From assembly GCA_032718475.1 (NCBI GenBank), contig JAUCBJ010003577.1, forward strand, positions 1-42,750: 42,750 nucleotides of DNA, read 5' to 3'. The translations under genes and the position numbers were made by a program. Below the pieces are notes generated by a model, which saw only the letters and a list, made by a program, of their open reading frames with translations, was not told the DNA's origin and did no database searches. Positions 1 through 33,779 of this stretch are shown piece after piece; the stretch's first letter is position 1; each line of letters opens with the position of its first letter. Source of the stretch: Nemertoderma westbladi (Eukaryota; Animalia; Xenacoelomorpha).

Positions 1-9
1 ATGATTTTA

Positions 10-928
10 TTCCAAAATTGTAACATTACTCAACGCCGCTAGGATTAACAGCGAGTTGTTATTAGCACTTTACAACTTTAGAGGACATTACAGCATTGTA
101 TTGGCCTGTATAATTAGTGTAGTGGGTGTTGTAATGTCCCTTGTTTATGTGGTAACCAATGACGGCGAGCTGTAAAGTTACGGTGTCATTGGTTACCACG
201 TAAACAATAGGTGGTATTTGCCTGACAGCCAGATAGGCCTACTGCATTACCTACCGATAGGCGGGGTATGGCTATTAATAAACAGTAGGGCCTAGCTTAT
301 TATTATAACATGGCTCCAAACGCTACCATAAATATAAGCTAACTTATTTATACTGTATATGTCATTTTTACATTTATTTATACAGCAACTAATATAATTT
401 GTGCATTTTCTATTACTTATAATATATATACAATCATGTCGTAATGTTACAATTTTGTAATAAAACTACATACATACTTGTCTTGTTGCAAAGTAATTTG
501 TTCCAAAATTGTAACATTACTCAACGCCGTTAGTATTAACAGCGAGTTGTTATTTAGCAATTTACAACTTTTGAGGAAATTACAGCATTCTATTGGCCTG
601 TACATTTAGTATTGTATTTGGTGTTATCCGTTAAGTAATGTCCCCTTAGTGGACATTATTTCACGCCGTCATTGGTTACTACGTAAATAATTCTAGTAAA
701 TCTAGCAAATGTCATGGGTGATAGGGAGTTGTGGCGGTGCAATTTTGTTGACAAGCCGGGACAGCATTCTTAAAAATGCAGCTGTAATGCAGCATGCCGA
801 TCCTAGTATGTAGTAACGTAAATAATAGGTATAAATTTGCCTGACAGCCAGAAAGGCCTACTGCATTACCTACCGGTAGGCGGGGTATATCTATTAATAA
901 CCAGTTGGGCCTAGCTATACTATTATAA
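10..928. repeat. ~490-bp tandem duplication inside the intron of the BAF-fusion gene
   Basis: TTCCAAAATTGTAACATTACTCAACGCCG and downstream sequence recur at 10 and 501, and at 22987 and 23476 in copy 2. Confidence 0.85.
692..815 (+). mobile_element. 5'-truncated 3' fragment of the RTE LINE family found at 12169-21002
   Basis: Matches the reverse complement of ~12170-12285 (...AAATGCAGCTG.AATGCAGCATGCCGATCCTAGTA tail). Flanked by the 11-bp TSD ACGTAAATAAT (681-691, 816-826). Absent at the equivalent site in copy 2 (~23655). Confidence 0.9.
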
Positions 929-6521: not shown

Positions 6522-6590
6522 CTTCCCTTTCATCCCATTCCCTCTACGACTCCTTGACCTGCTTCTATTCCCTTTCTTCTTCGCAGCCAT
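6522..6590 (-). CDS. Exon 1 of protamine-like/BAF fusion gene, copy 1 (MAAKKKGNRSRSRSRRGNGMKGK); BAF exon predicted just outside the window
   Basis: ATG at 6590, 23 codons, then the donor AAG|GTTTGT. Identical to 24377-24445. Window position 1 corresponds to 22978, which is 30 bp intron-side of the copy-2 acceptor. Confidence 0.8.
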
Positions 6591-7657: not shown

Positions 7658-7699
7658 TTAAATAGGTACTTGTTTGTTCCTAGTGTTCCTAGTGTATTC

Positions 7700-8368: not shown

Positions 8369-8457
8369 TTCATTAACTTATATATTAACTTATACCACTT
8401 ATATACCACTTATACATTAACTTATATATGAACTTATATATTATTCATATATATATA

Positions 8458-10310: not shown

Positions 10311-10652
10311 TATATTATCATATATATTATGTTAGTCCTTGGTAAGTATGTTATTGTGTAGACCTATTATAACTCTCTTATATTAGTTAGCTAGTGTTTT
10401 TTTTCATTATTGTTTTACCAGGCAGCTAGTGATTTCTAATAGTACAAATAGCTATCGATTTTATATAGGTAATTTAAAAAATATAGGGTTTCAAATAATA
10501 TTGCTCCACAATTTATTAATTAATCTGTTTATTGTAAATCGTCTAAATTACTGCCACAGTTGGCCGGTATCGTAAACTGTTCGATATTAAAGCTTTTTGA
10601 AGAACATTTTGTCTGTAAGAACTTTATCTCTCGGCATTTTCTTTCCTTTTCA

Positions 10653-11043
10653 TCATTTCTTCGATTTTCCCCGTCCTTTCTTCCCCTGTAAATATCAATT
10701 CATATACTGTTACAATCACGTAATTAGGAATATGTACTGTATAGGCCTATAGTAGACCTAAACCCACATTATATCCTATATTATATTTAGTCAAACAAAC
10801 CTTCCCTTTCTTTCCCTTTCCTCTACGACTTCTAGACCTGCTTCCTTTACCTCGGCGACTCCTAGACCTGCTCTTCTTTCCCTTCTTACTTCCCTTTCGT
10901 TTTTTACGTCTCCTTTTCTCCATTTCGTTCCGGCTGGTGGAACGATTACCTCTCTTTGATAGGCTCCTACTTTTCCTTTCATCTAAGGCCCAACTCGGCA
11001 AACTATCCAGCCCTAAATCGCTATCTTCAGGTTGAACAGGCAT
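10653..11043 (-). CDS. Two-exon protamine-like basic protein, 91 aa, with acidic 22-aa leader; join(complement 10801-11043, 10653-10685)
   Basis: Phase-0 GT-AG intron at 10686-10800 (AAG|GTTTGT ... TTTACAG|GGG). Exon 2 encodes GKKGRGKSKK-TGA. Residues 43-91 are only K/R/S/G (31/49 K+R) with SRSRSRR repeats. AATAAA lies ~120 nt after the stop. Confidence 0.8.
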
Positions 11044-11154
11044 GATTATTTAAAATATTACAGATAATTATATATGTCCTAAACAAAAATTGATTTCAGA
11101 ATTTATTTTGTAACTAATTTTTCCTAAATGACATAGATTGATGTGCAGTTCTAC

Positions 11155-11320
11155 TGTATTATATATAATATTTTGAATTCCAGAACTTAGTTTTGATTGG
11201 TTGATTTAAGCAATTCTGTTCTCATTGGCTAAAACAAAATGGTATTTGGTAGGCGGTTTTGGTGGGAGGTTTACCCGTTAACGGTGTTCATTTTGATTAA
11301 ACTGTTTGCTTAACTGTTTG
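11155..11320 (-). promoter_or_regulatory. Putative promoter of the protamine-like gene
   Basis: TA-rich TATA-like run at ~11157-11170, two minus-strand CCAAT boxes (~11196, ~11224) and the palindrome CCGTTAACGG at 11275-11284. Confidence 0.5.
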
Positions 11321-12207
11321 CTGTTTGCTGTTTGCTGTTTGTTTGCTTTGAACCATGAGGGGCGAATCAGTGCAATTTAAAGAAGAACGCTTGGGTTAGG
11401 CGTTGCCATGTATTCACCATTAGAAAGACAAATAAAACTGCACCTACCCTCCTTACTCTCCCCTACATACTGTAGTATAAGTCGCACAGGTGTGTACAGT
11501 AGTCTTAGTCTTAGCTTCCTTACATTAATATTTTCTTATTAAATAATCCCTAACAAATATAGCCTAGCTATGTAATTATATCCCTATGCTATGGGAGCTA
11601 GCAGTGACCGTAGATGAACCTACACTAGCACTGTCTGGGTGGGAGACAGTAATTTTTATTAAATAAGACATTTATGTTTGATGTTATAAAACAAATTATC
11701 CAAAGTTTTTTTTTATAATTTTGTACAGTACCGTAGATGGACTATATTTCTCTCCTTTCTATTCATTCCATTATTAGATATATCAAAACAGATAAACAAT
11801 AGCATTTACAATAAATTAAATAAATCCATAGCCTCATAGTACCATTTTGTAAAAATATGAATAGCTACACAATAGAGTTATTGTATAGGAATACCGCTGT
11901 TGCCAACCAACTCATAAAATAAATAACACGTTCTAGAATTTTGTAAATTTATTAGATGAAAAAGATGGCCTACCTACAGCGAATGATCGTTCTTGCAATC
12001 TTTGAACGCCTATATCTGAGCTGTTTCTCAACGAAATTCAGATATTCTTACATATTTGGAATCCTTGCAACTAAAGCTTTTTAATGATATGAAGAAATTG
12101 CGACTAATCGGAAGAATGGCCACGATACGGAAGGTGTGATTTCGCAAATTCCGGCTTCATGGGGTCATACTACTACTAGGATCGGCATGCTGCATTGCAG
12201 CTGCATT

Positions 12208-13925
12208 TTAAAGAATGCTGTGGCGGCTTATCGACAAAATTGCACCCCGCCACAACTCCCTATCACCCACGACATTTGCTAGATCATCCGCATCTTCAAG
12301 GCCAGTGTCCTTTAAGATGCGTCTCAAGAAAGTCATGGGCTGTCCACCATGCTTATTCACTCCACGAGGCTGCCAAAGTACAAGATTATGCACTGGTTGG
12401 TCCTCACGGCGAAAGCAATGTCCTGCAAAGCGGAGGCGATTTTGTTCTAGTGTCAAGCTTGGGGGAACCAATGAGACACCTCCAATGTTATATAGTGTCT
12501 GGTTGGAGATGTGTGCATTGTACTTGACACAATGAACCCGGCGTAGCATTCTTGTGAATGTGCCATCCAGAGATTTGGTGTCCTCAGCAGTTAGAGCCCA
12601 GCATGGACTCCCATAGAGGAGTACTTGAACTACTGCTGCTCTAAATAATCGGTCCTTAAGTTTCCGATTAATTCTCGGTGACTTCCAAATCCTGGAAAGC
12701 CTATTCAAGGCTGCCCATGCCTTTCCCTTACGTATTCGAAGGTCCTCACCTGACTTCCGGATCCATGATTCCAGGTAACAGAAGTCATCCACGTGCTCAA
12801 GCATACCATCTTTTGAGCTTATGCTCATCCGATCAGAGACTTGCTGAGGACTTTCAAAGTTAACTGTCAAAATTTTGGTCATTCTGGAGTTAATAAAAAG
12901 ACCAACACTAGAAGCAGCATGTTCTAATGAGCTGAGGAGCCGTTGGGCTCCCTCTAGTGATTCTGAGAGTACTCCTAAGTCATCAGCAAAGTCTAGATCA
13001 GTTAGGTACTTGGCAGGATTTCCACGACTTCTGGAGCCAGTAGGTGGAGTTATCATCACCCCATCATTATTATGATGATCTAAGGACATGCGTAGAACAT
13101 AGTCAACAACAATTATGAACAAGAATGGTGCAAGTGTGTCTCCCTGGAGGACGCCTCATAACACTTCAAATGGTTCTGTGTCACCGTCAACAGTAGACAC
13201 AAATGTTGTCGAACCATCGTATACTGATCTAATTGCTGCAATAATTTCATCAGGAATCCCATATAATGAAAGTATGCTGAACTTACGTGAGCGAGAGACT
13301 GAATCAAAGGCCTTGAAGAAGTCAACAAAGATAACAGCCAGATGCCTGTCTTATTTCCACGGAGCAGTCTCTCAATGGGATCCCTGATGCGATTTAATAG
13401 AATTCTATTGTATAGCTTTGCAGCAATCAAGATCAATGAGATTCCCCGAAAAGAACCATAGAGTGTTAGGTTGCCCTTCTTGGGAACTGGCACCAACTTA
13501 TTTGTTTTCATTTCTTGTGGGACTCTTGTTGTTCGGTACATGTCTACTATGATGGGATATATTAGCTTTAAACACTCAGGTATTTTAAAGACCTCAGGGG
13601 GAATCCCATCTACTACACTGGCACGATTGGTCTTAATGCTCTTTGCAGCAGCCTTCACTTCTGCAAAGGAGATATCACCAATGGGAATATCTGGGAGTAC
13701 AGACTCAGACACTTTTACTTCTATAAAGTTATCAGGCAATACCCTGTCATTATTGAGGAGCTTTTCAAAGTGGGCCTTCCAACCATTGAAGCGATCGGCT
13801 GGTGATTCAGCCTTAACCTTGGTGGTTGGTTGGCTTTTTCGACCAGCAAGCAAGTTGATCGATCTCCATGCCTGGGATAATTGCCTGTTGTCATCAGCAT
13901 CAGTGATGGCATCAACCTGTTGGTT
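12208..13925 (-). pseudogene. RTE ORF, RT and C-terminal part (frameshifted)
   Basis: PVPKKG, FRGISL, LDFADDL, VLLYGS and RLRFAGHCFR motifs across ORFs 13113-13853 and 12208-13122. Confidence 0.9.
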
Positions 13926-14119
13926 TATTTAATTTAATTGATATTCGTACATATGAATAAACGATAGACATACAGTAGTACACGGTACGTAGACATATTA
14001 TTAGTAAAGTAGCACAATATTAATGACGTAGGCCTATGTAATGAATAACTGACAGAACACGTAGTAAATGACACGGCATCGAACAAATAATGATAGGCAA
14101 TAATATAAAGAATATTTAA

Positions 14120-17100
14120 CTAACATGTAGTAATATAATTAAGGATATCAGTAATCTCATCAACATTAAAACCAGGTATATCAATATTGCTACAACGACA
14201 ATTAATTAATTCCCTACACAATTCTAATTTCCATCTATCAGCTACATCAAAAGGAACGTAGTTCAACTTATTAACGTGCGTAACATTGATCGAGTTAATG
14301 AGAGGTATTTTACACAGATTTGCGATAGAACGTAAATTGCACCCACTTCGCGATCGACAATCATATAAAAATAATTTTGCTAAATAACGAATGCTTGATT
14401 TTTCAGACTGCACTAAACTGGTACAAAATCTTATAAAACGTGAATATAACATAATACTGGGGTGTTTAAACTGCATTAAATTTTCTACAATATATCTATG
14501 TGATGTAAAAGGCAATCTAAAAATAATCCTAATATTAATATTCCATGAACTGTATATACGAGTACACGATGCAGAAAAAAGATCCCATAAATTACTACCG
14601 TAGAAGGATGTGCAATAAATACGCTGAATATTACTCAAAACATACGGATCAGAAAAATAGAATTCTTGTCGAAGTGCATTGAGCTTTCCTATAAATTTTC
14701 CCCGTTTTCGTATAATATCAGACTCCATTGTGTTCTGGAAATCTAACATGTTTCCTAGATGCAACGCCTCCCTGACCCAAGGAAGTGGTCTCCCGTTCAG
14801 CATTACTGACGCTGTGGGTTTAAACCACACTCTCCCAAAAGGAATGCACTTGGATTTGGATTTATCCGGATTCGGGTTTGTACTAAACACGAGATGGTTT
14901 TCGGTTGCGAACTCCTCGCATAACTTGACCATAAACCGTAGTCCCACTATGGAAGGGCATAAAAGGAGAAGATCATCTGCGTAGCCGAAAATACCAAAAT
15001 AAAAAGAACCAATATAACAGCCAACTTTAGATGACCTCAGTTTTGATATTAATTTATCCAATATAATACAGAACAGAATCGGAGATGCCACTGAACCTTG
15101 ACGAACTCCGTTCGTTAACGTAAATGACTCGGAATGGAAGCTGTTCCAGCGGACGCAACATGTTTGATTACTATAGATCCATAGCAGGGTTCGTAAGAAA
15201 AAAGGAGAAAACCCCTTCTTAATAAGTTCCAGAAATAGCTTGCACCATTCAACCATATCGAAGGCTTTCGATAGATCGAGAAGACATCCAAATACAGGAG
15301 TTGCGTTTCTAGAATAGAAACCGAGAACCTCTGTAGCCACCCAGGTACATTGGGACGTACTGGAACCACGTTGGAACCCGAATTGCAACTCATCCAAATG
15401 TAAGCACTCAGCCTGCGAGATCAGCATGACCCACTCAAACAACTTAATCAGAAGGGAGGATAAGGCAATAGCCCTGTAATTACTGGAAAGGGAATCGTCA
15501 CCTAATTTATCTTTTATCAAAGGAATAATGACACACGTCAGTAAGAACTGTGGAACAAAGCCGTGAATGAGAAAACTGTTGAACAAATCACTTAAATGTG
15601 AACATAATTCTGGAGGACCATTGATCAGGCAATCAGAATCAAAATCAAAAGTTACGTCTGTTTTAGAGCTTTTTAGCCTATGTAGACCTTCACTGACCAA
15701 ATCCGGAGTGATATGCGGGAAATCAGCTGAATCACATCCTTCGAGTTTATCGGTAATCTGCGATCTAACGAACTCTAAATCGGAATCATACGGTTGATTA
15801 TATAGATCCGAATATATACTGGCGAATCGGTCGGCTATCGATTGTGGGTCTGTACAACCATCAATGGTCGAAGTCACAGTGTTCGGTGTGGATCTAAGTT
15901 TCTTTATTTCTCTAAATATATCACTATTATTCCTTAAACACGCCTGTAGGAGTTTATCTCGACGCACATTATCTACTGAACGTTTGAGCCGTCGGACGGC
16001 ATACTTATACTGCGCGCGAGACACCCGTCGCATGTGAAAAAGCTGACTATTTTGTGAAGCATTTGGACACCCCGCCGAGACCCACAAGGAATGCCATAGG
16101 ATAGCTTCATCTCTAAATGGTTTAACTCGCTCCGACCAACCGGGAAGTTTAGGGCGATTAATAGTAGCACGGGGCTCACCATTATAATTATTATTTAAAC
16201 TACTACAGCTGATATCAATGCATTCAAGAATATCTAAAACATATTTTTCAATAAACAGTCTATGAGTAAGGTCCGCACAAAAAATATTACCACATGTTAT
16301 ACAACCTGACTCAACCTCAATGTCATCCAATTTATTATGTAGATTGTTTACAAAGTCATGTTGCTGTTCAATAGTAGCTCGCTTAAATTTAATTTTACCA
16401 TTACCAGTAGCATCACCTGAGCTATAATTAACACGTGGTAAATCTACACCACTAACTTTCAACTTCAAAAATATTGGGTCATGAAAAGATAAATTAGCAC
16501 CAGAATGTACTACACCAGAATCAGTAACATTTTCTACCAATTTACTCGAACTGAAAAAGTGATCTAAAATGTAATGAAAAGATGCCTGTTCTCTGTAGCA
16601 CGTGTAAGTATAATCAATAGGATTAAAATCCCATAGACGTTCTAATTTAAATTCCTGTAAAAATTGACTAATTACACGAACATGCATAGATACACGCGAA
16701 AAATCAGCATTGAAATCCCCTGCAAGTATAACATTACAAAGCTGCTCCGATAAAATAATATGTTTGATATCATTGGTAAGAGTAAGTAAATCGTCTGATA
16801 CATTAATATTGTCCCGCGTATCTACTGGACAATAACAATTAATTATCACAAAAGGGTTAACATTGGGCAATTCAACTCGTACAGCTTGCAATCGGGGATT
16901 CGTAACGTTAATTCTAGATATATATTTAGACAAAGATGGCCTATAAATAAAGCAGAGTCCGCCGCTAGGCCTACCTGCAGATACTTCATTTACTGTGCTA
17001 GACTGCGCAGGTTGTATTAAACATTTAAATGCAGGGAAAGCTGCTGTAAGCTTATAAGAATTATCACGCAATAAAAAGTGCTCTTGAATACAGACAATAT

Positions 17101-17173
17101 CGCTTCCAGCTAATAATACATTGATAAAGTCAAGTTTATCGGGTGACAAACCAGTACTGTTATATGACGTCAT
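14120..17173 (-). CDS. LINE ORF2: APE endonuclease + reverse transcriptase (1017 aa)
   Basis: YNSTGL, CIQEH, AGDFNAD, LDHFF and FHDPI (APE); LDLSKAFD, GVRQGSVASP and YADDL (RT). Confidence 0.95.
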   Translation of the reverse strand: MTSYNSTGLSPDKLDFINVLLAGSDIVCIQEHFLLRDNSYKLTAAFPAFKCLIQPAQSSTVNEVSAGRPSGGLCFIYRPSLSKYISRINVTNPRLQAVRVELPNVNPFVIINCYCPVDTRDNINVSDDLLTLTNDIKHIILSEQLCNVILAGDFNADFSRVSMHVRVISQFLQEFKLERLWDFNPIDYTYTCYREQASFHYILDHFFSSSKLVENVTDSGVVHSGANLSFHDPIFLKLKVSGVDLPRVNYSSGDATGNGKIKFKRATIEQQHDFVNNLHNKLDDIEVESGCITCGNIFCADLTHRLFIEKYVLDILECIDISCSSLNNNYNGEPRATINRPKLPGWSERVKPFRDEAILWHSLWVSAGCPNASQNSQLFHMRRVSRAQYKYAVRRLKRSVDNVRRDKLLQACLRNNSDIFREIKKLRSTPNTVTSTIDGCTDPQSIADRFASIYSDLYNQPYDSDLEFVRSQITDKLEGCDSADFPHITPDLVSEGLHRLKSSKTDVTFDFDSDCLINGPPELCSHLSDLFNSFLIHGFVPQFLLTCVIIPLIKDKLGDDSLSSNYRAIALSSLLIKLFEWVMLISQAECLHLDELQFGFQRGSSTSQCTWVATEVLGFYSRNATPVFGCLLDLSKAFDMVEWCKLFLELIKKGFSPFFLRTLLWIYSNQTCCVRWNSFHSESFTLTNGVRQGSVASPILFCIILDKLISKLRSSKVGCYIGSFYFGIFGYADDLLLLCPSIVGLRFMVKLCEEFATENHLVFSTNPNPDKSKSKCIPFGRVWFKPTASVMLNGRPLPWVREALHLGNMLDFQNTMESDIIRKRGKFIGKLNALRQEFYFSDPYVLSNIQRIYCTSFYGSNLWDLFSASCTRIYSSWNINIRIIFRLPFTSHRYIVENLMQFKHPSIMLYSRFIRFCTSLVQSEKSSIRYLAKLFLYDCRSRSGCNLRSIANLCKIPLINSINVTHVNKLNYVPFDVADRWKLELCRELINCRCSNIDIPGFNVDEITDILNYITTC

Positions 17174-17252
17174 ACAAAATGCACCATTGTGTAGTAAATG
17201 TGAAGTATCCTTTGTATAAAATATTTAAAAGAAAAATATATACCAAACTTTA

Positions 17253-18983
17253 CTAGTTACTGGAATTCGCGCTAGGAACCTGTGTATTATCTCGACCCCT
17301 GGGACCAACAATAGGAACCCGAGTATTATCTGAACCTCCAGAACCTGCATTCTCTGCATATGGAACCTGAGTATTATCTGGCCCACCGGAACCTGCATTA
17401 GGAACCCGAGTATTATCTGGCCCGCCGGAACCTGCGTATGGAACCCTAGTATTATCTGGACCGCTGTATCCTGTATATCTATTATCTGGACCTCCGTATC
17501 CTGCATATCTATTATCTGGACCGCCGTATCCCGCATATCTAGCTGTATTATCTGGACCGCCGTATCCTGCATTAGGAACCCGACTATTATCTCGACCGCC
17601 GTATCCTGCTTTAGGAACCCGATTCTTATCTTGACTGCCGTAACCTGGTGTAAAGCGGCTGTAACGCCACTCGCGAACACAAACCCCGGATGGCCACGTC
17701 TCTGGATCGAGCACTTTCTTTAAATCAACCCGTTGAACAGCAATCTTAAAACCATTCGACGTCGACCACGATTCGTCGCGAGATGTCTTTTCTATATCTG
17801 TTTCTTTGATCGTAATCCCCATCTCAGCCAGATCCGCCACCATATCCGCCGGAGTTACCGAGATGTGAACGCGAAACACATATATATGTGCTGGTGCCGC
17901 ACGAGTCTTTCGAGCGGTTCCCCCAGATGAACTAGCGGATCCTCCGCCCGTACCAATTACATGCTGCCGCTGCCGCCTCGGCTTCCGTTCGAAGAGGTTA
18001 TAACCCTCATCATCTATTCGACGCCTCGGAGTTGGTATCTCTTGGACATCCTGTTGGTTATCGACTTGTCCACCACCATCCCCAGTAGACGCCTGCCGGG
18101 GGCGCTTAGCGCTTCCTTGACCTTGGCCACTGTAGCGCCCATCCAATACTGTGTACATATTTCTGGTCTTTACGGCCGGGGACGGAGGATGACGGAATTG
18201 ATAACGCCCTGGTGGGGCCGGAGAATATAACCTCTGCGCGAGCACTTTCGGACGAGTATCCTGTGACTCCCGTCCACGGATAACTGGACTACCCACTTGG
18301 TTAGGGGCTGACGACGCTTTGCTTATAGCCTCCCGATACGGGAAATAAATTGCTGGTCTGTTGTTTTGATCAATGCTACTTACCGGTAACGGTGGGAATT
18401 CCCGCCCTACCGATGGCGGATCTCCGAACCGAACCGGTATTTGTGACTCTGTCGATTTAGTCGACATCACAAGATTCTCCAATGATTGCATTCTCTCGAC
18501 TAAATCTTTCTGCAATGACCGTAAACCCTGGTCAAATTTCTCCTCAAGACGTGACTGCTTAACTTGTAACCCCGTTTCTGACTGGATAATCAAGTTCGGT
18601 AGAGACAACGCTTCCAATGCCTCAACTGCTATTACAGGCATGCTTCCATTCATATCCATTGCTCTTATTACTTTATCAAACATATCACTTACATTCGCCT
18701 TTGCCGCAGTGCGTCCCGCAGAATCCCGCCTCTCGATTGGATCAAATCCACAACAATTAAACAGTTTGTCTTTCGCAAGAAGAATATCCGAGGGAGTGTA
18801 CCGAGTTAAACACGATTCCTGTACCGTTGCAGAACAGCTAGAGGATAAGCCTTGGACTAGCAAAGCTAAACACCCATTCACGATGGTGATACCCGATCTG
18901 TCCTCTGGAACAACATCCATGGCCCCCGACTGCGGCTGAGAGGCCAACAAGGAGCGCCTCCCTGCCGAATCAGGACCACTCAT
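17253..18983 (-). CDS. LINE ORF1 with coiled coil, RRM-like region and C-terminal Gly/Tyr repeats
   Basis: First ATG at 18983, directly upstream of ORF2. IYVFRV...FKIAV...WPSGVCVREW block, followed by (GYGGPDNTRVPNA)-like repeats. Confidence 0.85.
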   Translation of the reverse strand: MSGPDSAGRRSLLASQPQSGAMDVVPEDRSGITIVNGCLALLVQGLSSSCSATVQESCLTRYTPSDILLAKDKLFNCCGFDPIERRDSAGRTAAKANVSDMFDKVIRAMDMNGSMPVIAVEALEALSLPNLIIQSETGLQVKQSRLEEKFDQGLRSLQKDLVERMQSLENLVMSTKSTESQIPVRFGDPPSVGREFPPLPVSSIDQNNRPAIYFPYREAISKASSAPNQVGSPVIRGRESQDTRPKVLAQRLYSPAPPGRYQFRHPPSPAVKTRNMYTVLDGRYSGQGQGSAKRPRQASTGDGGGQVDNQQDVQEIPTPRRRIDDEGYNLFERKPRRQRQHVIGTGGGSASSSGGTARKTRAAPAHIYVFRVHISVTPADMVADLAEMGITIKETDIEKTSRDESWSTSNGFKIAVQRVDLKKVLDPETWPSGVCVREWRYSRFTPGYGSQDKNRVPKAGYGGRDNSRVPNAGYGGPDNTARYAGYGGPDNRYAGYGGPDNRYTGYSGPDNTRVPYAGSGGPDNTRVPNAGSGGPDNTQVPYAENAGSGGSDNTRVPIVGPRGRDNTQVPSANSSN

Positions 18984-19099
18984 CCTTTGCACAGTAGGCT
19001 AACACTTTGGCAGTCAGATTGTCAGTCAGTCAGTTCAGTCATTAGCAGTTACACTAACATTAGTTACATTAGCTCTTGTAAATTAACAGAGTACTGACT

Positions 19100-20563
19100 G
19101 TTCAGGGACCTAGATGCAGCCTTAACTGCATTCTTGGCCTCTGTAGTCTGTTTGAGTCGGGACTCTTTCTGCGCCTTGTAGAGGTCATTTCGGCACTTCT
19201 GAATTTTGTTGTCAGTCCGGGGGGCCCGTTTCCTGTTTCGAGGGTATACAGGAACTGTTTCTACAGCTGCTAACTTAACTGCCTCTGTGAAGGCAGTATA
19301 GCCCTCACAGTGATCTGCCGCCTCAGAGGCAAGTACCTCATACCTGTTGCTCAGCTGTACTGTGAAGCTGGATCACACACTTGGCTGTTGCAACAGAGAG
19401 GACCAGTCATGCCGCGGCAAGGCAGATTTCGTTGTTCTGCTAGCACGCAGACTAATCTTACCTTGGCCACAATAAGGCGGTGATCACTGGAGAAGGGTCG
19501 TAGTGTAAATGCATTACAGTCTTGTATAGAGCTCCTGTATTTCCTACGAAACAGGATATGGTCTATCTGGGACTTGTGACCACTGGGTCCACTATGAGTC
19601 CATAGCTTTCCAGTTCGCTTCTTGAACTGGGTTCCAGCCAAAAACAATCCATTTCCAGAGATAAAATTCTAAAGATGGACGGAATTTCGGTTAACACTAT
19701 TGTATAGACCCAGGGCGATGTAGGTGATTGATGCAGACTTGCATTAAAGTCTCCCAGGAATGTTAAGAATGCATGCTGATCCACTCCATCAGTAGCTGCT
19801 GTAGATTCTGGTAGAAATGTTCCACCTCCTCTACAGGGGCAACACTAGTTGGAGAGTAGCACACAATCAGAACCACCTTAGGAAACTTCTTAGCCAGTCT
19901 TCCAGACCATGAGAAGTGGCAACGGATGATGCGGTTAGAGATTTGGTCTATTTTGTCCAATGCTGCATGTGCAGTTGGATTCATCAATAGACCAATTCCA
20001 CCATTGCCACTATCATCTGCTGAAGCGAGGGCGAGTCGCCCACCGCCCCCCATGTCCTTAATCAGAACTTCATCAGTCTGTCCAGTCTGCATTCGGTGCT
20101 CTTGAACACCCACTGCACTAAGAGAAAGCTTATCTGCCAAGGCAGTCAGCTCACCTTGTTGCATTGGGGACCCGAGTGTTAGGGTGTTTACTGAGGCTAG
20201 TCTAGTGACTTGCCTCAGATTCACCAATGGCTTTGTTGGTCGGGGTGGAACATGAGAGTAGCCTCCAACTCCAGAATCCCTTTCCCCCTCACAATCTGGC
20301 CTCCCTGGTGACCCAGGGTTTGGGCCAGAAAGGTCATCAGGAAAGGGACTCAAAGAATTGTTTGCCGCTCTCTCTCCAGTAGGGGGTGAGACAGGCAGCC
20401 GGTCAGGAGATAACTGATGCCTGTGAGACCGATTGTGTCCAGTCATTCCACTGGCCTCTAGTGGCTGGACCTCCGCATTACAAATGTAATCCATAGTGGG
20501 GGTTGGGGGGTGCTTTTTTACTGAGTCAGCTCTCGGGGCAAATACCACACCCTGGTTTGCCAT
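19100..20563 (-). pseudogene. RTE ORF, N-terminal APE endonuclease part (frameshifted)
   Basis: LASVNTLTL, VGVQEHR, GGIGLL, VCYSPT, LGDFNA, SQIDHIL and SSDHRL motifs in three frames. Confidence 0.9.
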
Positions 20564-21333
20564 TCCACAGGGTGGGTGTCGCAGTGGAGTCAGATATGAG
20601 GCCCATCACCCATATCTACTCTCGCGCACATGACCCACCATTGGCTGTGCAGCTCCTCTGCTGGGTCATGTCCTGTACCCCTGATGCCAGGTGCAGGTCG
20701 CAGTGAAGTGCACTCAGAGTGGACATGAGAACACTCTACTCCTGACCAGCCATTGGTTGATCACCATCTGCCTGGCCAGGCCATATACCCCTGCAGCCAA
20801 GTATATGGGTCCTTAATCCCGAACCAAGGGCGTCCTTATCCCAGAACGAAGGGGGTCCTAGTTACAGGACCAGATTTGCCCTAGTAAGAGAGTCTATGCA
20901 GCTACAGGTGGCACCTCCTTTATGCTGCATGGAGTTGGCAAGTTTTCTTGATCAATGACCTAGAATACCTGACCTGACCTGATGCCGGTCGATTGTAAGT
21001 CGATGGGGTCATCGACGGTGAGTGGAACTAGTTGTCATCAGAAAATGACACTATATTACGGGACATGGTGTATATATTAGAGCAGAATTATCATTATTAA
21101 GTATTTGCTTTTATTTTTAATTGATAGTAACAATGTGTTGGCAAGCTGTATTTTTCGAGAATTCTGTATTTTTAAACATAAATGAATGATTAGGGGTGGT
21201 TGGACCGTTAACAGTGTTGTAATTATTTTTTTGGAATTATTTGTGGGCGAGTTGTGGGAATTATTTATTCCGTTAACAGTATTGGAATTATTTGGGGGCG
21301 GTTATTCCGTTGACAGTATTACATTTCTGTTAA

Positions 21334-22249: not shown

Positions 22250-22611
22250 TTAAATACACAAGTCAATAATTATTAGCTATCGACTCGGTAATTATTCGAA
22301 CGAAGGAGATTTAAAGTTAAAGATATATTAAAAAATTTTATAAAAATATTCTAATAAAAATAAAAAAAAAATAAAATAAAACCATTCTTACGATACAAAC
22401 AGTAAATAGAACAACAAGCTCGTACGAAATCAAAATTACCGTGGACAGAATGAATATTTCATGTGATGGCGCGGAATTGAGTAGTTTTGTATTAATAATT
22501 AAATATAATGCAATGCAACAAATAGTTAATAAATATTTAGATCTGGTTACATAACTATCCAATAACATGTGGGCCCAATACATCTTATTTACTCGAGTCG
22601 GCTGTTAACAT

Positions 22612-24445
22612 TTACGAGTAGTATGCTTCGCACATGATCGATATAGCTCTATGAGCTCGATGGGAATAGGCCTTGTAAAAGTGGTCCCCACAGATCTTAG
22701 AGAGCCACAGATGGAAATCTTCCAGCTTCTCTCTTAGTAGAATGTACTTCGCTAAGACCTGGTAGGCTCGTGTGAATCCATTATTGGCGAGACTACCTCC
22801 GAATACTTCTCCTATTCCAGGGATGTACTTTACACTCCGATTTCCCAACTCTCGAGCCAGAATCCGTCGATGTTTCTTCGTCTTCAGGATCTTCCCTATT
22901 TTCTTTCCGTTTCCACCTCTTCTCGCGATTCCTCGACTTTCCTTACCCTGAAAGAATTGTATTGAGCATTTTGTAAAATGATTTTATTCCAAAATTGTAA
23001 CATTACTCAACGCCGCTAGTATTAACAGCGAGTTGTTATTAGCACTTTACAACTTTAAAGGACATTACAGCATTGTATTGGCCTGTATAATTAGTATTGT
23101 AGTGGGTGTTGTAATGTCCCTTGTTTATGTGGTAACCAATGACGGCGAGCTGTAAAGTTACGGCGTCATTGGTTACCACGTAAACAATAGGTGGTATTTG
23201 CCTGACAGCCAGATAGGCCTACTGCATTACCTACCGATAGGCGGGGTATAGCTATTAATAAACAGTAGGGCTTAGCTTATTATTATAACAAGGCTCCAAA
23301 CGCCACCATAAATATAAGCTAACTTATTTATATATGTCATTTTTACATTTATTTATACAGCAACTAATATAACTTGTGCATTTTCTACTACTTATAATAT
23401 ATATACAATCATGTCGTAATGTTACAATTTTGTAATAAAACTACATACAAACTTGTCTTTTTGCAAAGTCATTTGTTCCAAAATTGTAACATTACTCAAC
23501 GCCGTTAGTATTAACAGCGAGTTGTTATTTAGCAATTTACAACTTTTGAGGAAATTACAGCATTCTATTGGCCTGTACATTTAGTATTGTATTTGGTGTT
23601 ATCCGTTAAGTAATGTCCCCTTAGTGGACATTGCTTAACGCCGTCATTGGTTACTACGTAAATAATAGGTAGAAATTTGCCTGACAGCCAGATAGGCCTA
23701 CTGCATTACCTACAGGTAGGCGGGGTATATCTATTAATAACCAGTTGGCCTAGCTATATTATTATAACATGACTCCACACGCCACCATAAATATAAGCTA
23801 ACATATTTATAACATAATTTATGTCACTTTTACATTTATTTATACAGCAAATAATTTAATTTGTCCAGTTTCTATCACTTATAATATATATACAATCATT
23901 TCGTAATGTTAAAATTTTGGAATAAAACTTCATACATACTTGTTGCAAAGTACTTTACAGTGTTCTGATCCTCGTGGCTTTATTTTCACTCACTCACTCA
24001 CTAACGTTCGTTCGTGTAACAAAGCCACTCGGATCATCACACTGTAAAGTGCTACTTTACACACAAGTACTGTATGTAAATAGTTATTACGATTTTTAAT
24101 GAGAACCGAGTCACGAAAGTAAACTAAAAAAGTAAAGTTATCTTTGTACATTATTTCAGGGAAAACGCACAAAGAATCAATTATTTCCCTTGCGATTCCC
24201 CCAGAACTACTGTATTCTGCCTAGAAGAAACTTACTCTTTTAGCGATCGTTTAAGGATGCAAGGCGCATAGATGAAACCGGGTTAACTTGAACCCAATTA
24301 TGGGCTAAACGACAAGGATGTGACAGAGAAATATATCCCAACATAGATTATATTGTATTAAAATAAATAAACAAACCTTCCCTTTCATCCCATTCCCTCT
24401 ACGACTCCTTGACCTGCTTCTATTCCCTTTCTTCTTCGCAGCCAT
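22612..24445 (-). CDS. Two-exon protamine-like-tail/BAF-domain fusion protein, 134 aa; join(complement 24377-24445, 22612-22947)
   Basis: Exon 1 MAAKKKGNRSRSRSRRGNGMKGK ends AAG|GTTTGT. Acceptor TTCTTTCAG|GGT at 22948, phase 0. Exon 2 reads GKESRGIARRGGNGKKIGKILKTKKHRRILARELGNRSVKYIPGIGEVFGGSLANNGFTRAYQVLAKYILLREKLEDFHLWLSKICG...MCEAYYS. It aligns ungapped to BAF hallmarks KHR, GIGEV (HhH), GF.xAY.VL and F..WL...CG. Confidence 0.88.
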
Positions 24446-24764
24446 TTCGTTCCAACACGGATACAGTAGGCCTACCTGTTATTATTATCTATCCTATTTA
24501 ATTTAAATTGTGTTACAAATTTAATAGAGCGATTCGTGTATGACAACTTTTTTCAATGTTTGTTATTTATATATGAAGACTAAATTCTAGAATTAGTTAA
24601 CCCACCGATTAAATTATATTATAGGTGGTTGATTGGATGTAATAAACTAACGGCGTATTAATTCTGTTAACGGTATTCAGAATCCCCCCCCCCCCCCCCC
24701 CCTGCCTAACATGTCCAGAAATTACATTGTACTCATTCTATTGTCTTAATTTGGAACAAGTCTC
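22978..24764. repeat. Segmental duplicate (copy 2) of 1-6912, without the TE insertions
   Basis: Direct sequence match. Homology ends at GAACAAGTCTC, where the BEL/Pao element starts. Confidence 0.95.
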
Positions 24765-26258
24765 ATTGTAAAAGCTTTTGTGGGATAACTGATTCGTTTG
24801 CTTTGCTAACCAGTTCCCCCCAGGGCGCTGGAATACTCTAAAAGGGATCTCTAGCTCGAATAGCGCAAGCTACCGGCTGATTGGCTGATTTGCTGTGCGA
24901 AGGGATCTGGGCTACGTTTGATTGTCCAACCAGCTTGGGAAAGTTGCCCCACAGCCCTGCTTTCTGTATCTGCCAATAAGATTTGAGTTGATTTTGATTT
25001 CGACCTATCACAGATCTACTGAACTGAATTTTCCTATCTGTATGCTCTTTCTCTGTGGTGGGTGGAAGCCTTTGTAAATAAGGTTATTCTTATCAGTGTT
25101 CAGTGTTCTTGGTCTTTCTGTCCTGAGCCAGGAGAGAACGGCTTGGAAATATTTTGTGCTTTTCTGTTTTAGTCTAACACTAGTAGGCTTAATTATAAGG
25201 ACATATATCCGTTATCAATCCAAACTAACAAACTGATGTTTGGTCTTTCTTGCATACTTTTATATTGTTATACTGCTATTTACTGTCAGTTCTTCATAAC
25301 ATGGTTGATGAATTATTATATTTGGAATAACGATAAATAACCCCGAAACCCAATATTCTTGATATACCGAAGGTAAGAGAGAAAGGTTACATATAACGAT
25401 TGTGACTTATGTTAAAGTGGTTTGAAGTGAATCTAATGTTATTTGATAGACCCTACATGATTCGGTCCGTGTTCCTTTTATATGTGACTAAAATCAGTGA
25501 AGATCGGCAGATTAGTGTGCAGTATTGTGCAGCATTGTGTATGAGTGAGACTGATAACGAAGCATTTCCTAAAGAATGCGCCATATATGTGAATTATAAC
25601 TAAGCCATATCGTTGTGAGTAGTTTAAGTCATAACTCTGTTTATATAGATAGAGCGCCACGTCCTAAAGGAACTGTTAATATTTCCCGAAGGTGAATAAT
25701 ATTGTCAGAGATTATATAATACTGTCAGTCGAATAATACATTAGGCCTACATAGCAATACGATTAAGCCGTCGAACCCAATCTCCCGGGTATATCCAGCG
25801 GGTGAATGATCGCGCACAGATTGGTTTCGACTAGTGTAGTGAATCAAATACTTGTCATAGGCTAAAAGCGAATTATTATCTAGAAGACATCCTAATTTGG
25901 CGGGTTAAACTGCCAAAGGTCTGAAAGCGAGAACAATAACGGATATTGCTTCTGTATTGCAGTAGGCAATAAAGTTGAAAGTACCGGTCAACCGGTACAT
26001 CTGTAGGTCAGTAGGCCCAACTGCCAGAACCGGTACCCAGTAGGCCTGACTACCTAACCACCCGGACCGGTACCTACAGCAGTACAGGTACAGCAGTATT
26101 ATTCGATTTTGATTATTATATACCAGTAGGTCTTAATAATTAATCGGGGACGCCTGGTTTTTATTGGGATTTTACTTAGGCCTATTTCTGTCAGTTTTGT
26201 TTATTTGTAGGTCAATATTGAACAGAAGGCGTGTAAGCCTGATCAGATTGTACAGACA

Positions 26259-28150: not shown

Positions 28151-28277
28151 ATTATATATATCACGCTACACTGAGTAGCAGTATCGGTAATTAATTACTA
28201 GGCTAGCAGTTAACTCTGAATTACTAGACTTGCTTAAACTGTAATATAGCAGTAGGCATTCAACTGTGCAAACCAAC

Positions 28278-31200
28278 ATGTCTGATACTAAACAGAACCT
28301 GTCAGACAGTTTATTAGATGTAACTATCTGCGACTCAGACAGAGGTGTAGAACCGTCTAGTCCTAAGTTCAGTTCACCTCCCACTGTGAGGAAGGTCATC
28401 CCTCCTGTAGTAATAACAGAACCTAGGCTGGTCCAACATCGTAGGTCTATCATAGGCACTCGAGCTCAGGTCAAGCGGGACCAAGAAGCAGCGGAACAGC
28501 AACAACCCGCGAGCCAAGAACTTATTTCTCAGCGGCCCAACAGCTCCAGTAGTGAAGATACGGTAGAACTGATACCCGAACGCGGAGCAAGGATGACGGA
28601 TGAGGCTTATTCAGATCCCCTTCTCATCCTTCCTGCAGCCGTACTCACTAGGTTATTGATCGCTGTGGAAGAACACCAGATCGATTGGGCGAGAAGCCAG
28701 CGTTCAACTAGAGATAGTTATGCTGGATACACAAGGGAAGAACTGAAGTCCACGGTCGAGTCGCAATGGAACTTCCCCGGACCCGGACTCCCGTTTGATT
28801 TATCAGAAGCTGCCTGGGAAGACATACACCGGATGGGAGTAGCCAAGGAAACCATCGATCCAGCTGTGTGGAAGAGGTCCGCAGCCGGATACGCACAGGG
28901 ATTCTTCAGCTCTATGGAGAGAGTAGAAAAACAACTGTTACAACAACCTCAAGGACCTCAAGAGCAGGGAAAGCTGCTTTATCAAGTTAGAGAAAGAATT
29001 CTGCGAATTAGGCTAATATTATCAGCCTTTGAAGAGGCTTCTAAAAGAAGACAAGACACGTCGTTGCAAGTTGCCGTAAAGACTTGGTTTCAACGGGTGA
29101 GTCGCCAAGTTCAAGGAACAGCTCAGTGGAAAGCTCAGCTGGAGGAGCGCTCAACCCATGGAGAATCAACAGACGCTACTTATTCCCAAGTGGAAAGTGA
29201 AGCGACGGCAGAGAAACCGCATAAGAGGGATGCCATTGACATCTATCTGTCAGACTATCAACGTTTTTTAGGTGATGACGAGTTGAGGAGAAGGTTAGAG
29301 GGACTTAGCCCTAATAGTGAAGGAACCAAGCTTGTGTTGGATGCCATCGATGTGGAAATGAGAGCTGCGAATCAGGCTAAATTCGATGAACAACTCCGCA
29401 TCGCTAGAGACCAAGAGGAAAGGGTTAAGAAAAAACGTATAGAAGACAGAAAGGCAGCGGCAGTAGCAGCAGCAGTGGCATCGGCAGAAGCGGAAAGAAA
29501 GGCGGCAGCGGCAGAGGCAGAAGCGGGAAGAAAGGCGGCAGCGGCAGAGGCCGAAGCGGAAAGAAAGGCGGCAGCGGCAGAGGCCGAAGCGGAAAGAAAG
29601 GCGGCAGCGGCAGAGGCCGAAGTGGAAAGAAAAGTGGCAGAGGCAGTAGCAGAAGCAGAACGGAGAGCGACTGAAGAAATCACCCAGTTAGAATTGGAAA
29701 ACATTCAGGAGAATCAAGACTGCATAAATAAACAGTTAACAGCTAGCAATATGCAGATGATGAATCGATCTACTCCCAAAAGACAGGGATATACATCATC
29801 TGAGGAAGGCGATACCACCGATACTGAAGGCAAAGGAAATAGATCTCGTCTAAGCAGACGTAAAAGAACATTCCACCGTCAGAAATTGCCTGATTTGCCT
29901 CCAGCTGTTAGAAGGCAACTAAATAACACCAACTTAGGTAGTACAGAGCCCACAGACCAAATAATTAAATTAGAAAGACTCCCTACTATAGTAGATGAGC
30001 CTGAAATAATTAGGCCTGTTTTTGAAATCACCCCTTCGGTGATAGACACACCTGTGCTCCCTGAAGCTACCTCTAAATTCCCTCTGCATAGCACTAAGCT
30101 ACCTGTGCCCAGTAGAACTGCCCAGGAGACAGTTCAAGTCCTGGACCCCGAGCGAAATATTCCTGATTTGTCGCCCGTTGTCCCTCGTCCGCCCGCTACA
30201 ACGTTGGCGACTCCCGCTTCGGCGGTCGAATGGGTGGACGAGAGACGGCGGGGGATGGATCTCCTGCTCGGGCAGATGCGGGAGACGGTTCAGCAATTCA
30301 AGGGCACAGTAAGGGAAAGTAGGCTAGAGTTGCAAGAAGTGCAGCAAAGTATCGCGCTAGAACGCGATAAATTAGTAAATACACAAAGGGGTATACCACC
30401 ACCCCCTGTAACAATGTGTCAACCTGTTAGGTCTGAAGTATCTCATGCGCAAGGTGTGGAGCCTACACGCATCTATACTGCTAGCGAAGTAGAAACTCCT
30501 ATAGTGAACCCTATTAAGGGTAATTATAGACCTGTTGATAATGACATTCCCTATAGACCTGATCATAATCCGAGAAATTTATATACCGATAACTCGATAT
30601 TAAATAACACGATGGCCCAAGAAAGTTTTACGCGTCAAATGGCTAGAACCGAAGCCCGGCAAGCAGTAAAGGTGGGAGAGATCGTCAAGTTCAATGGAGA
30701 TGAGATGAAATGGTTACCTTTTAATGAATATTACAAAGATAACATACAGAACTCTGTACTATCTAATGGAGAAAAACTTAGATACCTCATCGAGTGCTTG
30801 GAAGGATCTCCCAAGTTAATGGCGTTAAAGTTTATTGGACATCCAGACGGATTAAGACAAGTTTGGGATACACTAAACATCAGGTATGGTAATAGGAATA
30901 ACATCGCTGGGTATTTGTATGCAAAGTTAGTAGCGCCCCGAAAGTTTATTAGCAGCGGGATTATCGAGTTTTCCGATGAAATCCAGGAGATCTGCAGACA
31001 ATTAGATTGGCTAGGTAAGTCTCATGAGTATCAGAACACTATGGTTATTAGAGCAGTGGCTTGTACTTTACCGAAAGGTGGAGTAGGTACACGCTGGGAT
31101 AAGAAAGTGTTATATATGATGGAACAACAACGACGAGACCCTACCATGGCTGATCTCATGTTATTCCTAGATGGAGAAGTGAAATTACAGCTCCTGAAAC

Positions 31201-32561
31201 TGTCCAGAGAGAAGACACCGGAAAACAAGGTAAGTGAAAAACCCGTCTCTAGGAGAAAGGTAACACCAGTGTGTTATACAGACGACGGCGAAAGCCAGAC
31301 TTCTCAAGGAGAAGATAGCGGGAAAGACCCTGATAGATCTTATTATGTCAATAAAATGCCTAAAGATCAGGTAAGTAAATTCAAGTCTCGAACAAATGAC
31401 AGGAGAGAACAGGTAAGAAAAACTCCTCCCACGTCTCCCAAGAGAATTCAGGTGAGAAAGCCCGAAGAAAAGGCAAGTGTACACAATGTGACTCAGATCA
31501 AGGTAAGTAACATCAAACCGAAATGTGCGCTGTGTGACGGGACCCACCATTTGAGAATGTGTGATGAATTTCTAAAGAAATCATTAACTGAGAGACGTGA
31601 AGTCATGTGGGACAAGCGGTTATGTTATAATTGCCTCAGACAAGGACACCAACGGCGAACCTGTTACTCTGACACAAGATGTGCCAAGTGCGGTGCGAAA
31701 CATCATATCTTGTTGCACGCGGAATTCGAGAGAAATAGTCCGAGTCAGGTAAGTGATTCCGAACTACATGTCCAATTCAGTGATGTGAACGACACTGATC
31801 AATCTGAGATGGAAGGATTCTATACGGACGAGTTCTCCGACGAAAACGAATCCTGTTACATGATAAATACCACAGTGTATCGAGCACTTATTTATGAAAA
31901 GGATACATCAGACATTGACCTTGCTTTAAATACTTCTGATCGACAACTTTCTTGGAAAGCGCCAACTTCCAATGTAGGGATTAGAGAATTTCCTGTGGTA
32001 CAGGTAAGGGTTCACGGACCTAAGAGGAGTTACGTAGTGAACGCCCTCCTTGACTCCGGTAGTACAGGAACATTCATCGACCAAGAGCTAGCCGAAGACA
32101 TATTTGCTGGACAACCCAAGTTCCGAACTACGCTAAACATGTCAGGCATTATGCAAGTTTGGAAATCTACAATAACAGCGGATTATTATGTAGGAGCGTT
32201 GTCCACCCCCCAGGACGAACTAGGAGAACATAGCATAAGGTCAGTGAAAATGGTGGCTATAAAGAACTTCGCTACTACTCAAGCAGACCTTTATAATTGG
32301 GACGAGGATGAGAGCATCCAACATCTTAAGATACCTCGATTCCAGACTGATTATCCTGGAGTGCAAATACTCATCGGCCAAAACGCGCATGAGGCGCTGG
32401 AGACATTAGAGAAACGGCCTGCTCAACCGCAGCCGCTACAGACCTATGCGGTAAGAACTAGAGTAGGTTGGTACTTTACTGGCCCTTCCCGTAGAACACT
32501 CAGAGAAAGACTACCGCCAGAGAGCGTCTGCCAGGTACCCAAGGAGGTGAGGTCTCTATAG
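28278..32561 (+). CDS. gag: BEL/Pao Gag + aspartic protease
   Basis: First ATG at 28278 (MSDT). FNGD..KW...EKLRYL block, three Cys/His knuckles (CALC..HHLRMC, CYNC..GH...C, CAKC..HH..LH) and protease LLDSGS. Contains an (AAAEAEAERK)n repeat. Confidence 0.92.
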   Translation: MSDTKQNLSDSLLDVTICDSDRGVEPSSPKFSSPPTVRKVIPPVVITEPRLVQHRRSIIGTRAQVKRDQEAAEQQQPASQELISQRPNSSSSEDTVELIPERGARMTDEAYSDPLLILPAAVLTRLLIAVEEHQIDWARSQRSTRDSYAGYTREELKSTVESQWNFPGPGLPFDLSEAAWEDIHRMGVAKETIDPAVWKRSAAGYAQGFFSSMERVEKQLLQQPQGPQEQGKLLYQVRERILRIRLILSAFEEASKRRQDTSLQVAVKTWFQRVSRQVQGTAQWKAQLEERSTHGESTDATYSQVESEATAEKPHKRDAIDIYLSDYQRFLGDDELRRRLEGLSPNSEGTKLVLDAIDVEMRAANQAKFDEQLRIARDQEERVKKKRIEDRKAAAVAAAVASAEAERKAAAAEAEAGRKAAAAEAEAERKAAAAEAEAERKAAAAEAEVERKVAEAVAEAERRATEEITQLELENIQENQDCINKQLTASNMQMMNRSTPKRQGYTSSEEGDTTDTEGKGNRSRLSRRKRTFHRQKLPDLPPAVRRQLNNTNLGSTEPTDQIIKLERLPTIVDEPEIIRPVFEITPSVIDTPVLPEATSKFPLHSTKLPVPSRTAQETVQVLDPERNIPDLSPVVPRPPATTLATPASAVEWVDERRRGMDLLLGQMRETVQQFKGTVRESRLELQEVQQSIALERDKLVNTQRGIPPPPVTMCQPVRSEVSHAQGVEPTRIYTASEVETPIVNPIKGNYRPVDNDIPYRPDHNPRNLYTDNSILNNTMAQESFTRQMARTEARQAVKVGEIVKFNGDEMKWLPFNEYYKDNIQNSVLSNGEKLRYLIECLEGSPKLMALKFIGHPDGLRQVWDTLNIRYGNRNNIAGYLYAKLVAPRKFISSGIIEFSDEIQEICRQLDWLGKSHEYQNTMVIRAVACTLPKGGVGTRWDKKVLYMMEQQRRDPTMADLMLFLDGEVKLQLLKLSREKTPENKVSEKPVSRRKVTPVCYTDDGESQTSQGEDSGKDPDRSYYVNKMPKDQVSKFKSRTNDRREQVRKTPPTSPKRIQVRKPEEKASVHNVTQIKVSNIKPKCALCDGTHHLRMCDEFLKKSLTERREVMWDKRLCYNCLRQGHQRRTCYSDTRCAKCGAKHHILLHAEFERNSPSQVSDSELHVQFSDVNDTDQSEMEGFYTDEFSDENESCYMINTTVYRALIYEKDTSDIDLALNTSDRQLSWKAPTSNVGIREFPVVQVRVHGPKRSYVVNALLDSGSTGTFIDQELAEDIFAGQPKFRTTLNMSGIMQVWKSTITADYYVGALSTPQDELGEHSIRSVKMVAIKNFATTQADLYNWDEDESIQHLKIPRFQTDYPGVQILIGQNAHEALETLEKRPAQPQPLQTYAVRTRVGWYFTGPSRRTLRERLPPESVCQVPKEVRSL

Positions 32562-33779
32562 GGGTGCCTGGAACAGGCGGCGGCGGACTCGTGAGGGTCT
32601 GGGGGCACACTAAATTGACGCTATAGTGCAAGGGAGTTACTGAAGGCCCTCGTGTCTTGCGAACCATGAATCAACATGGTGCCGTGGTACCGTCTAGTCG
32701 GCCTGTTGCCGTACTGCCAGTCCTGTACACAGTAGGGGTGGTGGCTTAGTGTGATCTGTGGTTTATGTGGTCTATGTGGTAGGTCTATGTTTGGTATGTA
32801 TGAGTTGACCAGACTCTTTACTGTCTCCAATCGGTTGCCAAAACGTGTCTTTTCCGAGGGTAGCACTATTGGAATGGAGGTGTTGCATCGGAATGGACAG
32901 GTTCCTGATGATTCTGTTGGTACTACTATTGGAATGGAGGTGGCACCCGGAATATCGGCTGCAAGGAGGGGTTGGTGTTGTAGTGTGGTCCGAGTGAATG
33001 ATACTCTGGAATCTGTGGTTTGTGTGTGTACGTGGTATACGTGAGTGTATGTATGGCCACTGCGAGTGAGTATGGGAACCCTTGCCGGTTGGTCCAGACA
33101 CCGCTGGTATTAGTAGGACCATATCTTTACTGCGCCCCAGCATACTTAGTGCACACAAAGTTATTTTGCCCTGACGGCAAAATAAGGTACTCTCTACTCT
33201 TTTAACAGTCGATACAATTTTGTCCCCTCTGATTTTGTCCCCGATTTTGTCTTTCCCGATTATGTCCTCTGTGTGTGCATGGTATGTGTCAGATTTTGTG
33301 TTTACCGTAGTGTACTTGATATTGTGAACATCTGTTGAGTACACGTGTACAGTGACTGGTAAGTGGTTACTTGTTCCTAGCTTTCGAGCTAGTCAGTATT
33401 GTTTGTGGAACTGACTTCCCCTCAATACTGCCGGCGAGGCGGGTGAAAACGGTCAATATTCCATGTTGGGTAGCACAAGCCCACTTGGGACAAGACCGTC
33501 GGTTTGGCTCAAGGGCGACCTTGATGCTCGATCGCTATCGACTGGTCCACCCGCCGGTTGACTCTCTGAGTTGGCTCAATGTACAGTCAGGCCACAGCAA
33601 GTTGACAGTAGCCGACCATCTGGCTACACCGACGAGTTGTGCCGTTGTGATCGGGGGATTGAAAAGTGAACCCGGGAAGCATCGGGCTACCCTCCGGCCC
33701 GGTCTGATAAAAACATCAGTCGGACTGGCCCCAAGGGTGGTGGGACAGCGTCCGCCTCATGGGTGCGCCTCGGAGTCAT

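Follow-up and report, generated by a model that had tools for sequence, protein, structure and literature searches.

In the reviews consulted, sperm basic proteins are traced to histone H1, the exceptions being testis histones and HMG-box proteins (PMC5550673, PMC13148410, PMC13251019). The family of protamine-like (PL) proteins is defined by a winged-helix domain of histone H1/H5 origin (PMC13148410). In its members, like Mytilus PL-II/PL-IV and PL-III, Spisula PL-I and Nasonia Nv-PL1, this small DNA-binding domain is combined with a disordered K/R-rich stretch of 30-50 aa that may occur on its own as a free peptide, too (PMC5550673, PMC13148410, PMC13251019). Mytilus PL-II has a mass of 15.6 kDa and PL-IV of 6.5 kDa (PMC11607694). 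Protamines measure 50-110 aa, and the genes of sperm basic proteins typically come in tandem copies and change fast (PMC13148410). Other chromatin domains provide a precedent as well: Drosophila Mst35A/B is built on an HMG box, and hydrozoan and echinoid sperm H2B carries SPKK tails. Duplication and fast change are described for both (PMC13148410, PMC9903204), and neither uses BAF.

In human BAF (BANF1), mutation of residues 6, 25, 27 and 46 abolished or severely cut DNA binding, and residues 51, 53 and 54 belong to the valley that binds emerin (PMC2173821). Mutant 54E showed no emerin binding and lowered DNA binding, and was like the wild type in nuclear assembly; for mutants 14A, 18A and 47E, the chromatin was described as 'always condensed' (PMC2173821). 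A BAF paralog is at work in mouse spermatids (PMC8877947; bioRxiv 10.1101/2024.05.16.594580). This paralog, BAF-L (BANF2), is 90 aa long; it is reported not to bind DNA and to have a reduced LEM affinity (bioRxiv 10.1101/2024.05.16.594580).

The window analyzed here is a stretch of 42,750 nt from Nemertoderma westbladi (contig JAUCBJ010003577.1). A first-pass annotation had reported a single gene in it, here called copy A, in which a basic tail precedes a BAF domain. Self-comparison of the window added two copies of its first exon, B and C, on the same strand. The three related two-exon genes are best explained as a spermatid or sperm chromatin cluster, with a PL-like layout built on BAF; we give this reading a probability of about 0.6. 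In copy A, an RS-repeat basic tail would be spliced to a BAF domain that has diverged; copy B is likely alike, and copy C would encode the tail alone as a protamine-sized peptide.

Structure of the Cluster

Splicing of copy A (Table 1) gives a predicted protein of 134 aa and 15.2 kDa, with a 45-aa basic tail followed by an 89-residue BAF domain. Both the exon coordinates and the product of the first-pass annotation (two exons joined in phase 0 over a GT-AG intron, 134 aa) were reproduced from the sequence. So was its basic tail of about 45 aa with RSRSRSRR: the 45 residues comprise 10 K, 8 R, 10 G, 4 S and 1 acidic residue. With 40% K+R and a disorder predicted from its composition, this tail corresponds to the basic stretch of PL proteins. 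The words "protamine-like basic tail" in the title of that annotation suit the tail itself; since the whole protein has only 25% K+R, it is less basic than the title implies.

Table 1. Positions of the features of copies A, B and C within the window.
Feature	Position	Strand	Remarks
Copy A, exon 1 (ATG to donor)	24377..24445	-	69 nt, 23 codons; holds RSRSRSRR; homologous to B and C
Copy A, intron, GT-AG, phase 0	22948..24376	-	1429 nt; donor GTTTGT, acceptor TTCTTTCAG
Copy A, two tandem ~460-bp elements in the intron	22982-23440, 23472-23926		24-25-nt terminal inverted repeats
Copy A, exon 2	22612..22947	-	111 codons + TAA; 22 tail residues, then BAF domain
Copy A, BAF domain, intron-free	22881-22615	-	within exon 2
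Copy A, putative promoter and 5' UTR	24446..24640	-	CCAAT at 24636, TATATAA at 24573; motif match only
Copy B, exon 1	6522..6590	-	69/69 nt identical to copy A exon 1; donor as in A
Copy B, duplicate of copy A promoter, exon 1 and intron start	5916-6915	-	94%; holds copy B exon 1
Copy B, 3' part of the intron	1..691	-	97% like 22978-23666 of copy A
Copy C, exon 1	10801..10923	-	41 codons, K/R/S/G-rich; two SRSRSRR units; donor as in A
Copy C, intron, GT-AG, phase 0	10686..10800	-	115 nt; position as in A
Copy C, exon 2	10650..10685	-	10 codons homologous to the start of A exon 2, then two TGA
Stretch behind the copy C stops	10635..10649	-	13/15 nt as in the next five codons of A; would read K-G-K-K
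AATAAA behind copy C	10533, 10517	-	

The junction between the copy A exons (24377-22947) is deduced from the sequence, together with the homologous copies. Exon 2 is open over 123 codons, with its sole ATG at codon 117; hence, the BAF domain depends on an upstream exon. Upstream of the gene, CCAAT and TATATAA motifs are located 191 and 128 nt above the ATG, respectively. A poly-G run lies on the reverse strand ~240 nt above the ATG in both copy A (24684-24702) and copy B (6833-6853), with different lengths. Contigs from a sequencing run, apparently of DNA, cover the intron and the repeats, and one of them (22883-23109) crosses the copy A acceptor unspliced. No exon-exon joint is present in this run in 22300-24800 or 5800-11500, where copy C is uncovered; because the run looks like DNA, it has no bearing on splicing.

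For copy B, window bases 1-691 correspond to the distal end of the copy A intron, and its BAF exon should therefore start ~30 nt to the left of window base 1, outside the window. The two copies differ at one of 319 nt over exon 1 and the 250 nt upstream, this difference being located above the ATG, vs. 18 of 574 nt in the intron (p 0.003). Constraint, gene conversion or a tandem assembly of two alleles could each account for such a likeness of exon 1 and promoter. The copy B intron also contains ~5.2 kb (692-5915) missing from copy A, with an array of ~68-nt tandem repeats at 1336-2001.

The coding span of copy C (10923-10653, reverse strand) predicts a product of 51 aa and 5.9 kDa with 61% K+R and without a BAF domain. 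Its 18 K, 13 R, 8 S and 10 G together make up 49 of the 51 residues. The exon 1 peptides showed no family in a profile search. In size, high basicity and lack of a folded domain, copy C corresponds to a protamine. As lysine is more frequent than arginine (13 of 51, 25%), 'protamine-like' is the safer word. The 12-nt context of its ATG (10923) is the same as that of the copy A ATG. The frame stays open for another 40 codons above this homologous ATG (10924-11043, reverse strand), up to an ATG at 11043. Starting there, the product would have 91 aa (42% K+R), and its acidic leader of 40 aa would be reminiscent of protamine precursors. As no hydrophobic leader results from either start, a secreted antimicrobial peptide was rejected. 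Two TATA-like and two CCAAT motifs are found upstream of copy C, at 11074-11228.

Homology between copies A and C extends over both exons. The alignment score of the copy C codons past the acceptor with exon 2 of copy A is higher than in all 300 of 300 shuffles. Over the 27 codons anchored on the shared intron, pS is 0.50 and pN 0.18 (pN/pS 0.35, Fisher p 0.011); the ratio is 0.22 in exon 1 and 0.55 in exon 2 (p 0.37), in a small sample with the 17-codon limit of exon 1 set by eye after looking. These values favor two coding genes and independently support the copy A junction. Ten residues differ between both products, and at five of these ten copy C has Lys where copy A has a non-basic residue, which fits a relaxed pressure on the copy A tail. 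The promoters and most of the introns of A and C align no better than shuffles.

The BAF Domain of Copy A

Copy A is a member of the BAF family. The Pfam profile SAM_BAF (PF02961) matches its domain with an E-value of 2.3e-17 (63.7 bits, curated cut-off 25), and human BAF matches ungapped over residues 4-71 (E 3.8e-11). The profile match and a model with the BAF fold bear out the complete BAF domain announced by the first-pass annotation. Its count of about 25 ungapped identities over residues 6-68 was close: the column table gives 24, including K6, G25, I26, G27, F39, Y43, W62 and C67. The domain was modeled from a 70-row alignment with a mean pLDDT of 90, and the model leans on the BAF alignment used as input. 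It exhibits the all-helical BAF fold with a helix-hairpin-helix, and the eight best and significant Foldseek rows (E up to 0.001) are all human BAF, with TM values of 0.75-0.78. The top matches in the ESM Atlas are also BAF (score 0.96). Rank 13 of this search is a 111-aa cluster (score 0.93, 50% viral), possibly of viral BAF-like proteins.

With BANF1, copy A has the domain sequence, the fold and all four residues required for DNA binding in human BAF (K6, G25, G27 and L46) in common; it differs by the 45-aa basic N-terminal tail, by E54 and by changed conserved residues. These were read from the columns of the alignment, which consists of copy A and 69 mostly single-domain matches out of 127, found with copy A as a query. 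The LEM-binding valley of copy A reads L51, R53 and E54, and E54 is unique to it among the 70 rows. At positions 14, 18 and 47, it carries E14, R18 and A47; these changes differ from the tested mutants, and K18R and G47A are mild. Furthermore, it is off the consensus at seven columns that are conserved in 75% or more of the other rows (F10, E13, P14, K18, G47, L50 and C77), Met replaces W84, and two extra residues precede the last helix. The lost conserved residues fit decay as well as specialization. The length of 134 aa and E54 set copy A apart from a canonical BANF1 ortholog, with ~89 aa and an intact LEM-binding valley.

The net charge of the domain, +8, is the top of the 70 rows (median +2) and no outlier, as the next rows reach +7 and all were gathered with copy A as a query; P0018, with a domain identical to that of human BAF, has -1. 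The branch of copy A in the tree is 1.27 changes per site long vs. a median of 0.58. Only 8 of the 67 inner branches are supported, and copy A is unplaced; hence, no orthology with BAF-L follows from the tree. The two are alike as divergent BAF paralogs, tied to spermatids and of reduced LEM affinity in the case of BAF-L and predicted to be so for copy A. Contrary to BAF-L, with its reported lack of DNA binding, copy A keeps the DNA-binding residues and adds the basic tail. Taken from the residues, the domain fits a DNA-binding BAF that is no longer tied to the nuclear envelope.

Relatives in Databases and Literature

A phmmer search with copy A against 1.84 billion representatives gave 127 matches, none more than 43% identical. 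None of these 127 relatives has a basic tail like that of copy A; in 53, at least 15 residues precede the first domain, and none of these stretches is K/R-rich in the manner of the copy A tail. Since the representatives are clustered at 50%, so that a plain form could mask a tailed one, and since gene callers on raw contigs miss spliced tails, this absence is only moderate evidence. Among longer BAF proteins, restricted to 182-2000 aa, the three matches are a tandem BAF, a protein with an acidic extension and P0120, none with a basic tail. Several database proteins (P0001-P0006, P0010, P0012 and P0254) are tandem double-BAF proteins, single-chain dimers unless they are gene-calling artefacts.

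A word search for close relatives gave five candidates and no hit, and none of the 579 pattern matches on metagenome contigs was confirmed. With P0018 as a query, 20 matches were found on viral contigs, and none was confirmed as a BAF relative. Given this result, the introns and the genomic setting, a viral origin of the cluster was rejected.

No BAF with a protamine-like tail was found in the literature searched, which is mostly open-access and covers older sperm biochemistry thinly. The term 'autointegration' is absent from PMC12216123, PMC11607694 and PMC13251019. The architecture of BAF plus basic tail is real and apparently undescribed, with no tailed form among the 127 relatives or in this literature; the first-pass annotation likewise knew of no described example. 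That annotation had gone further and proposed a candidate new class. The combination of a domain, a tail and a free relative is a layout known from protamine-like proteins, and 'new class' is, therefore, fair only by analogy; what is new here is BAF as the domain in this layout.

Putative Function

By analogy, copy A likely works like a PL protein. A small DNA-binding domain is joined to a basic stretch in both, and the masses of copies A and C are near those of Mytilus PL-II and PL-IV. The PL proteins have a winged helix, and copy A a BAF domain with the basic stretch on its N-terminal side. Moreover, the free PL peptide results from cleavage, while copy C is a gene of its own. A profile search of exon 2 gives only SAM_BAF; in the absence of a winged helix, copy A is not a member of the PL family. 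Unlike Mst35A/B and sperm H2B, it has no HMG box, histone fold or SPKK motif.

Like human BAF, the copy A domain would form dimers that bridge two DNA duplexes, which is proposed because K6, G25, G27 and L46 are kept. The tail begins only two residues ahead of the K6 equivalent; it would, therefore, follow the bound DNA and neutralize phosphates. Phosphorylation of RS serines regulates protamine-like proteins, and the tail is likely regulated in the same manner. E54 and the changes at 14, 18 and 47 may uncouple the protein from the LEM proteins at the nuclear envelope and leave it with a compacting role. Most of the charge neutralization would be provided by copy C, with A and B as cross-linkers or transition-type proteins. 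The sperm role, argued from composition, clustering and analogy, had already been suggested at first pass; it gains from the tail-only paralog with the same intron and 61% K+R and from the second exon 1 copy, and is still a prediction.

The strongest of the competing explanations, itself improbable, is that these are real chromatin proteins outside of sperm, acting in the oocyte or egg, the early embryo, a dormant stage or a terminally differentiated cell, or in the nucleolus or on RNA through the RS/RG tail. RS and RG runs occur in RNA-binding proteins too. In egg extracts, moreover, BAF compresses chromatin at high concentration (PMC2173821). On the other hand, the composition of copy C leaves no room for another domain, its size and charge match those of sperm protamines, and tandem copies and fast change are the habit of sperm basic protein genes (PMC13148410).

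Somewhat less probable still, copy C alone would be a working protamine-like gene, and A and B functionless, decaying chimeras of a protamine copy that ran into an intron-free BAF copy. The lower K+R of the copy A tail, the several near-invariant residues missing from its domain, the intron-free state of this domain and the many transposons of the region would all agree with decay. Against it, the exon of 111 codons is free of stops and frameshifts despite the length of its branch, the domain has retained its glycines and the core residues on which fold and DNA binding depend, A and B resemble each other far more closely in exon 1 and promoter than in the intron, and the copy A splice sites have outlasted two intron insertions. 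It is very unlikely that exon 1 belongs to a different transcript and the BAF exon uses another first exon: two further in-frame AG acceptors do exist 6 and 45 nt downstream (22941 and 22902), but copy C repeats the order exon 1-intron-exon 2, homologous codons flank its intron of 115 nt, and the 22 codons ahead of the domain in exon 2 are K/R/G-rich themselves.

With the sperm chromatin reading, a BAF-based protein would be a new source of sperm basic proteins and, if copy A keeps the dimer, its DNA bridging would offer a compaction unlike that of a linker-histone domain.

Origin of the Tail-Only Gene

Fusion gene A and tail-only gene C are ~12 kb apart with a common intron, so that a comparison of sister species can directly test how a folded chromatin protein gives rise to a protamine. 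Truncation of a longer gene into copy C is put slightly ahead of the capture of BAF by a protamine gene, since the two TGA codons of copy C align with Gly-Gly of copy A and the next 15 nt match copy A at 13. The likeness may extend ~40 nt past these stops, with borderline support (15 of 300 shuffles as high). Behind copy C, neither tblastn nor a profile nor an alignment of the DNA (282 of 300 and 79 of 100 shuffles as high) detected a BAF remnant, which counts against truncation; the region is occupied by a 180-nt duplication and a Tc1-like element. The mouse Banf2 gene has an intron at residue 42 that splits the domain (bioRxiv 10.1101/2024.05.16.594580). Compared only with this mouse gene, the intron-free domain of copy A would be as expected of a captured retrocopy.

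A tentative extension, doubtful as a whole, is an independent BAF-based origin of a protamine: BAF would have gained a tail and become a sperm protein, and a Gly-to-stop change in a duplicate would have made copy C. If true, protamines would have a second route of origin next to that from histone H1, and both of its stages would still be found side by side. In the opposite order, with a protamine gene capturing BAF, copy A would still be an undescribed chimeric chromatin protein.

Repeats and Transposons

Outside of the cluster, the window consists mostly of LINE, Pao and Tc1-like transposons. The 180-nt sequence behind copy C (10453-10632, with the AATAAA signals) has a 96% identical duplicate at 8192-8371, and both flank a Tc1/mariner-like element (8432-10336). 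This element has ~237-nt terminal inverted repeats, a DUF4817 HTH and a transposase frame broken near 9320.

An apparently intact LINE occupies 14120-18998 on the reverse strand, with a 581-aa ORF1 and a 1034-codon endonuclease-RT frame; its nearest relatives are ~40% identical. At its C-terminus, ORF1 has a tandem repeat rich in G/P/D/N. The LINE seems to have inserted into a second, broken RT-endonuclease element, fragments of which flank it on the same strand (12208-13928 and 19064-20605). On the forward strand, 28245-37433 is a Bel/Pao retrotransposon with DUF1759, Peptidase_A17 and integrase. Its gag has an Ala/Glu-rich repeat, and the element is interrupted near 32560-33350.
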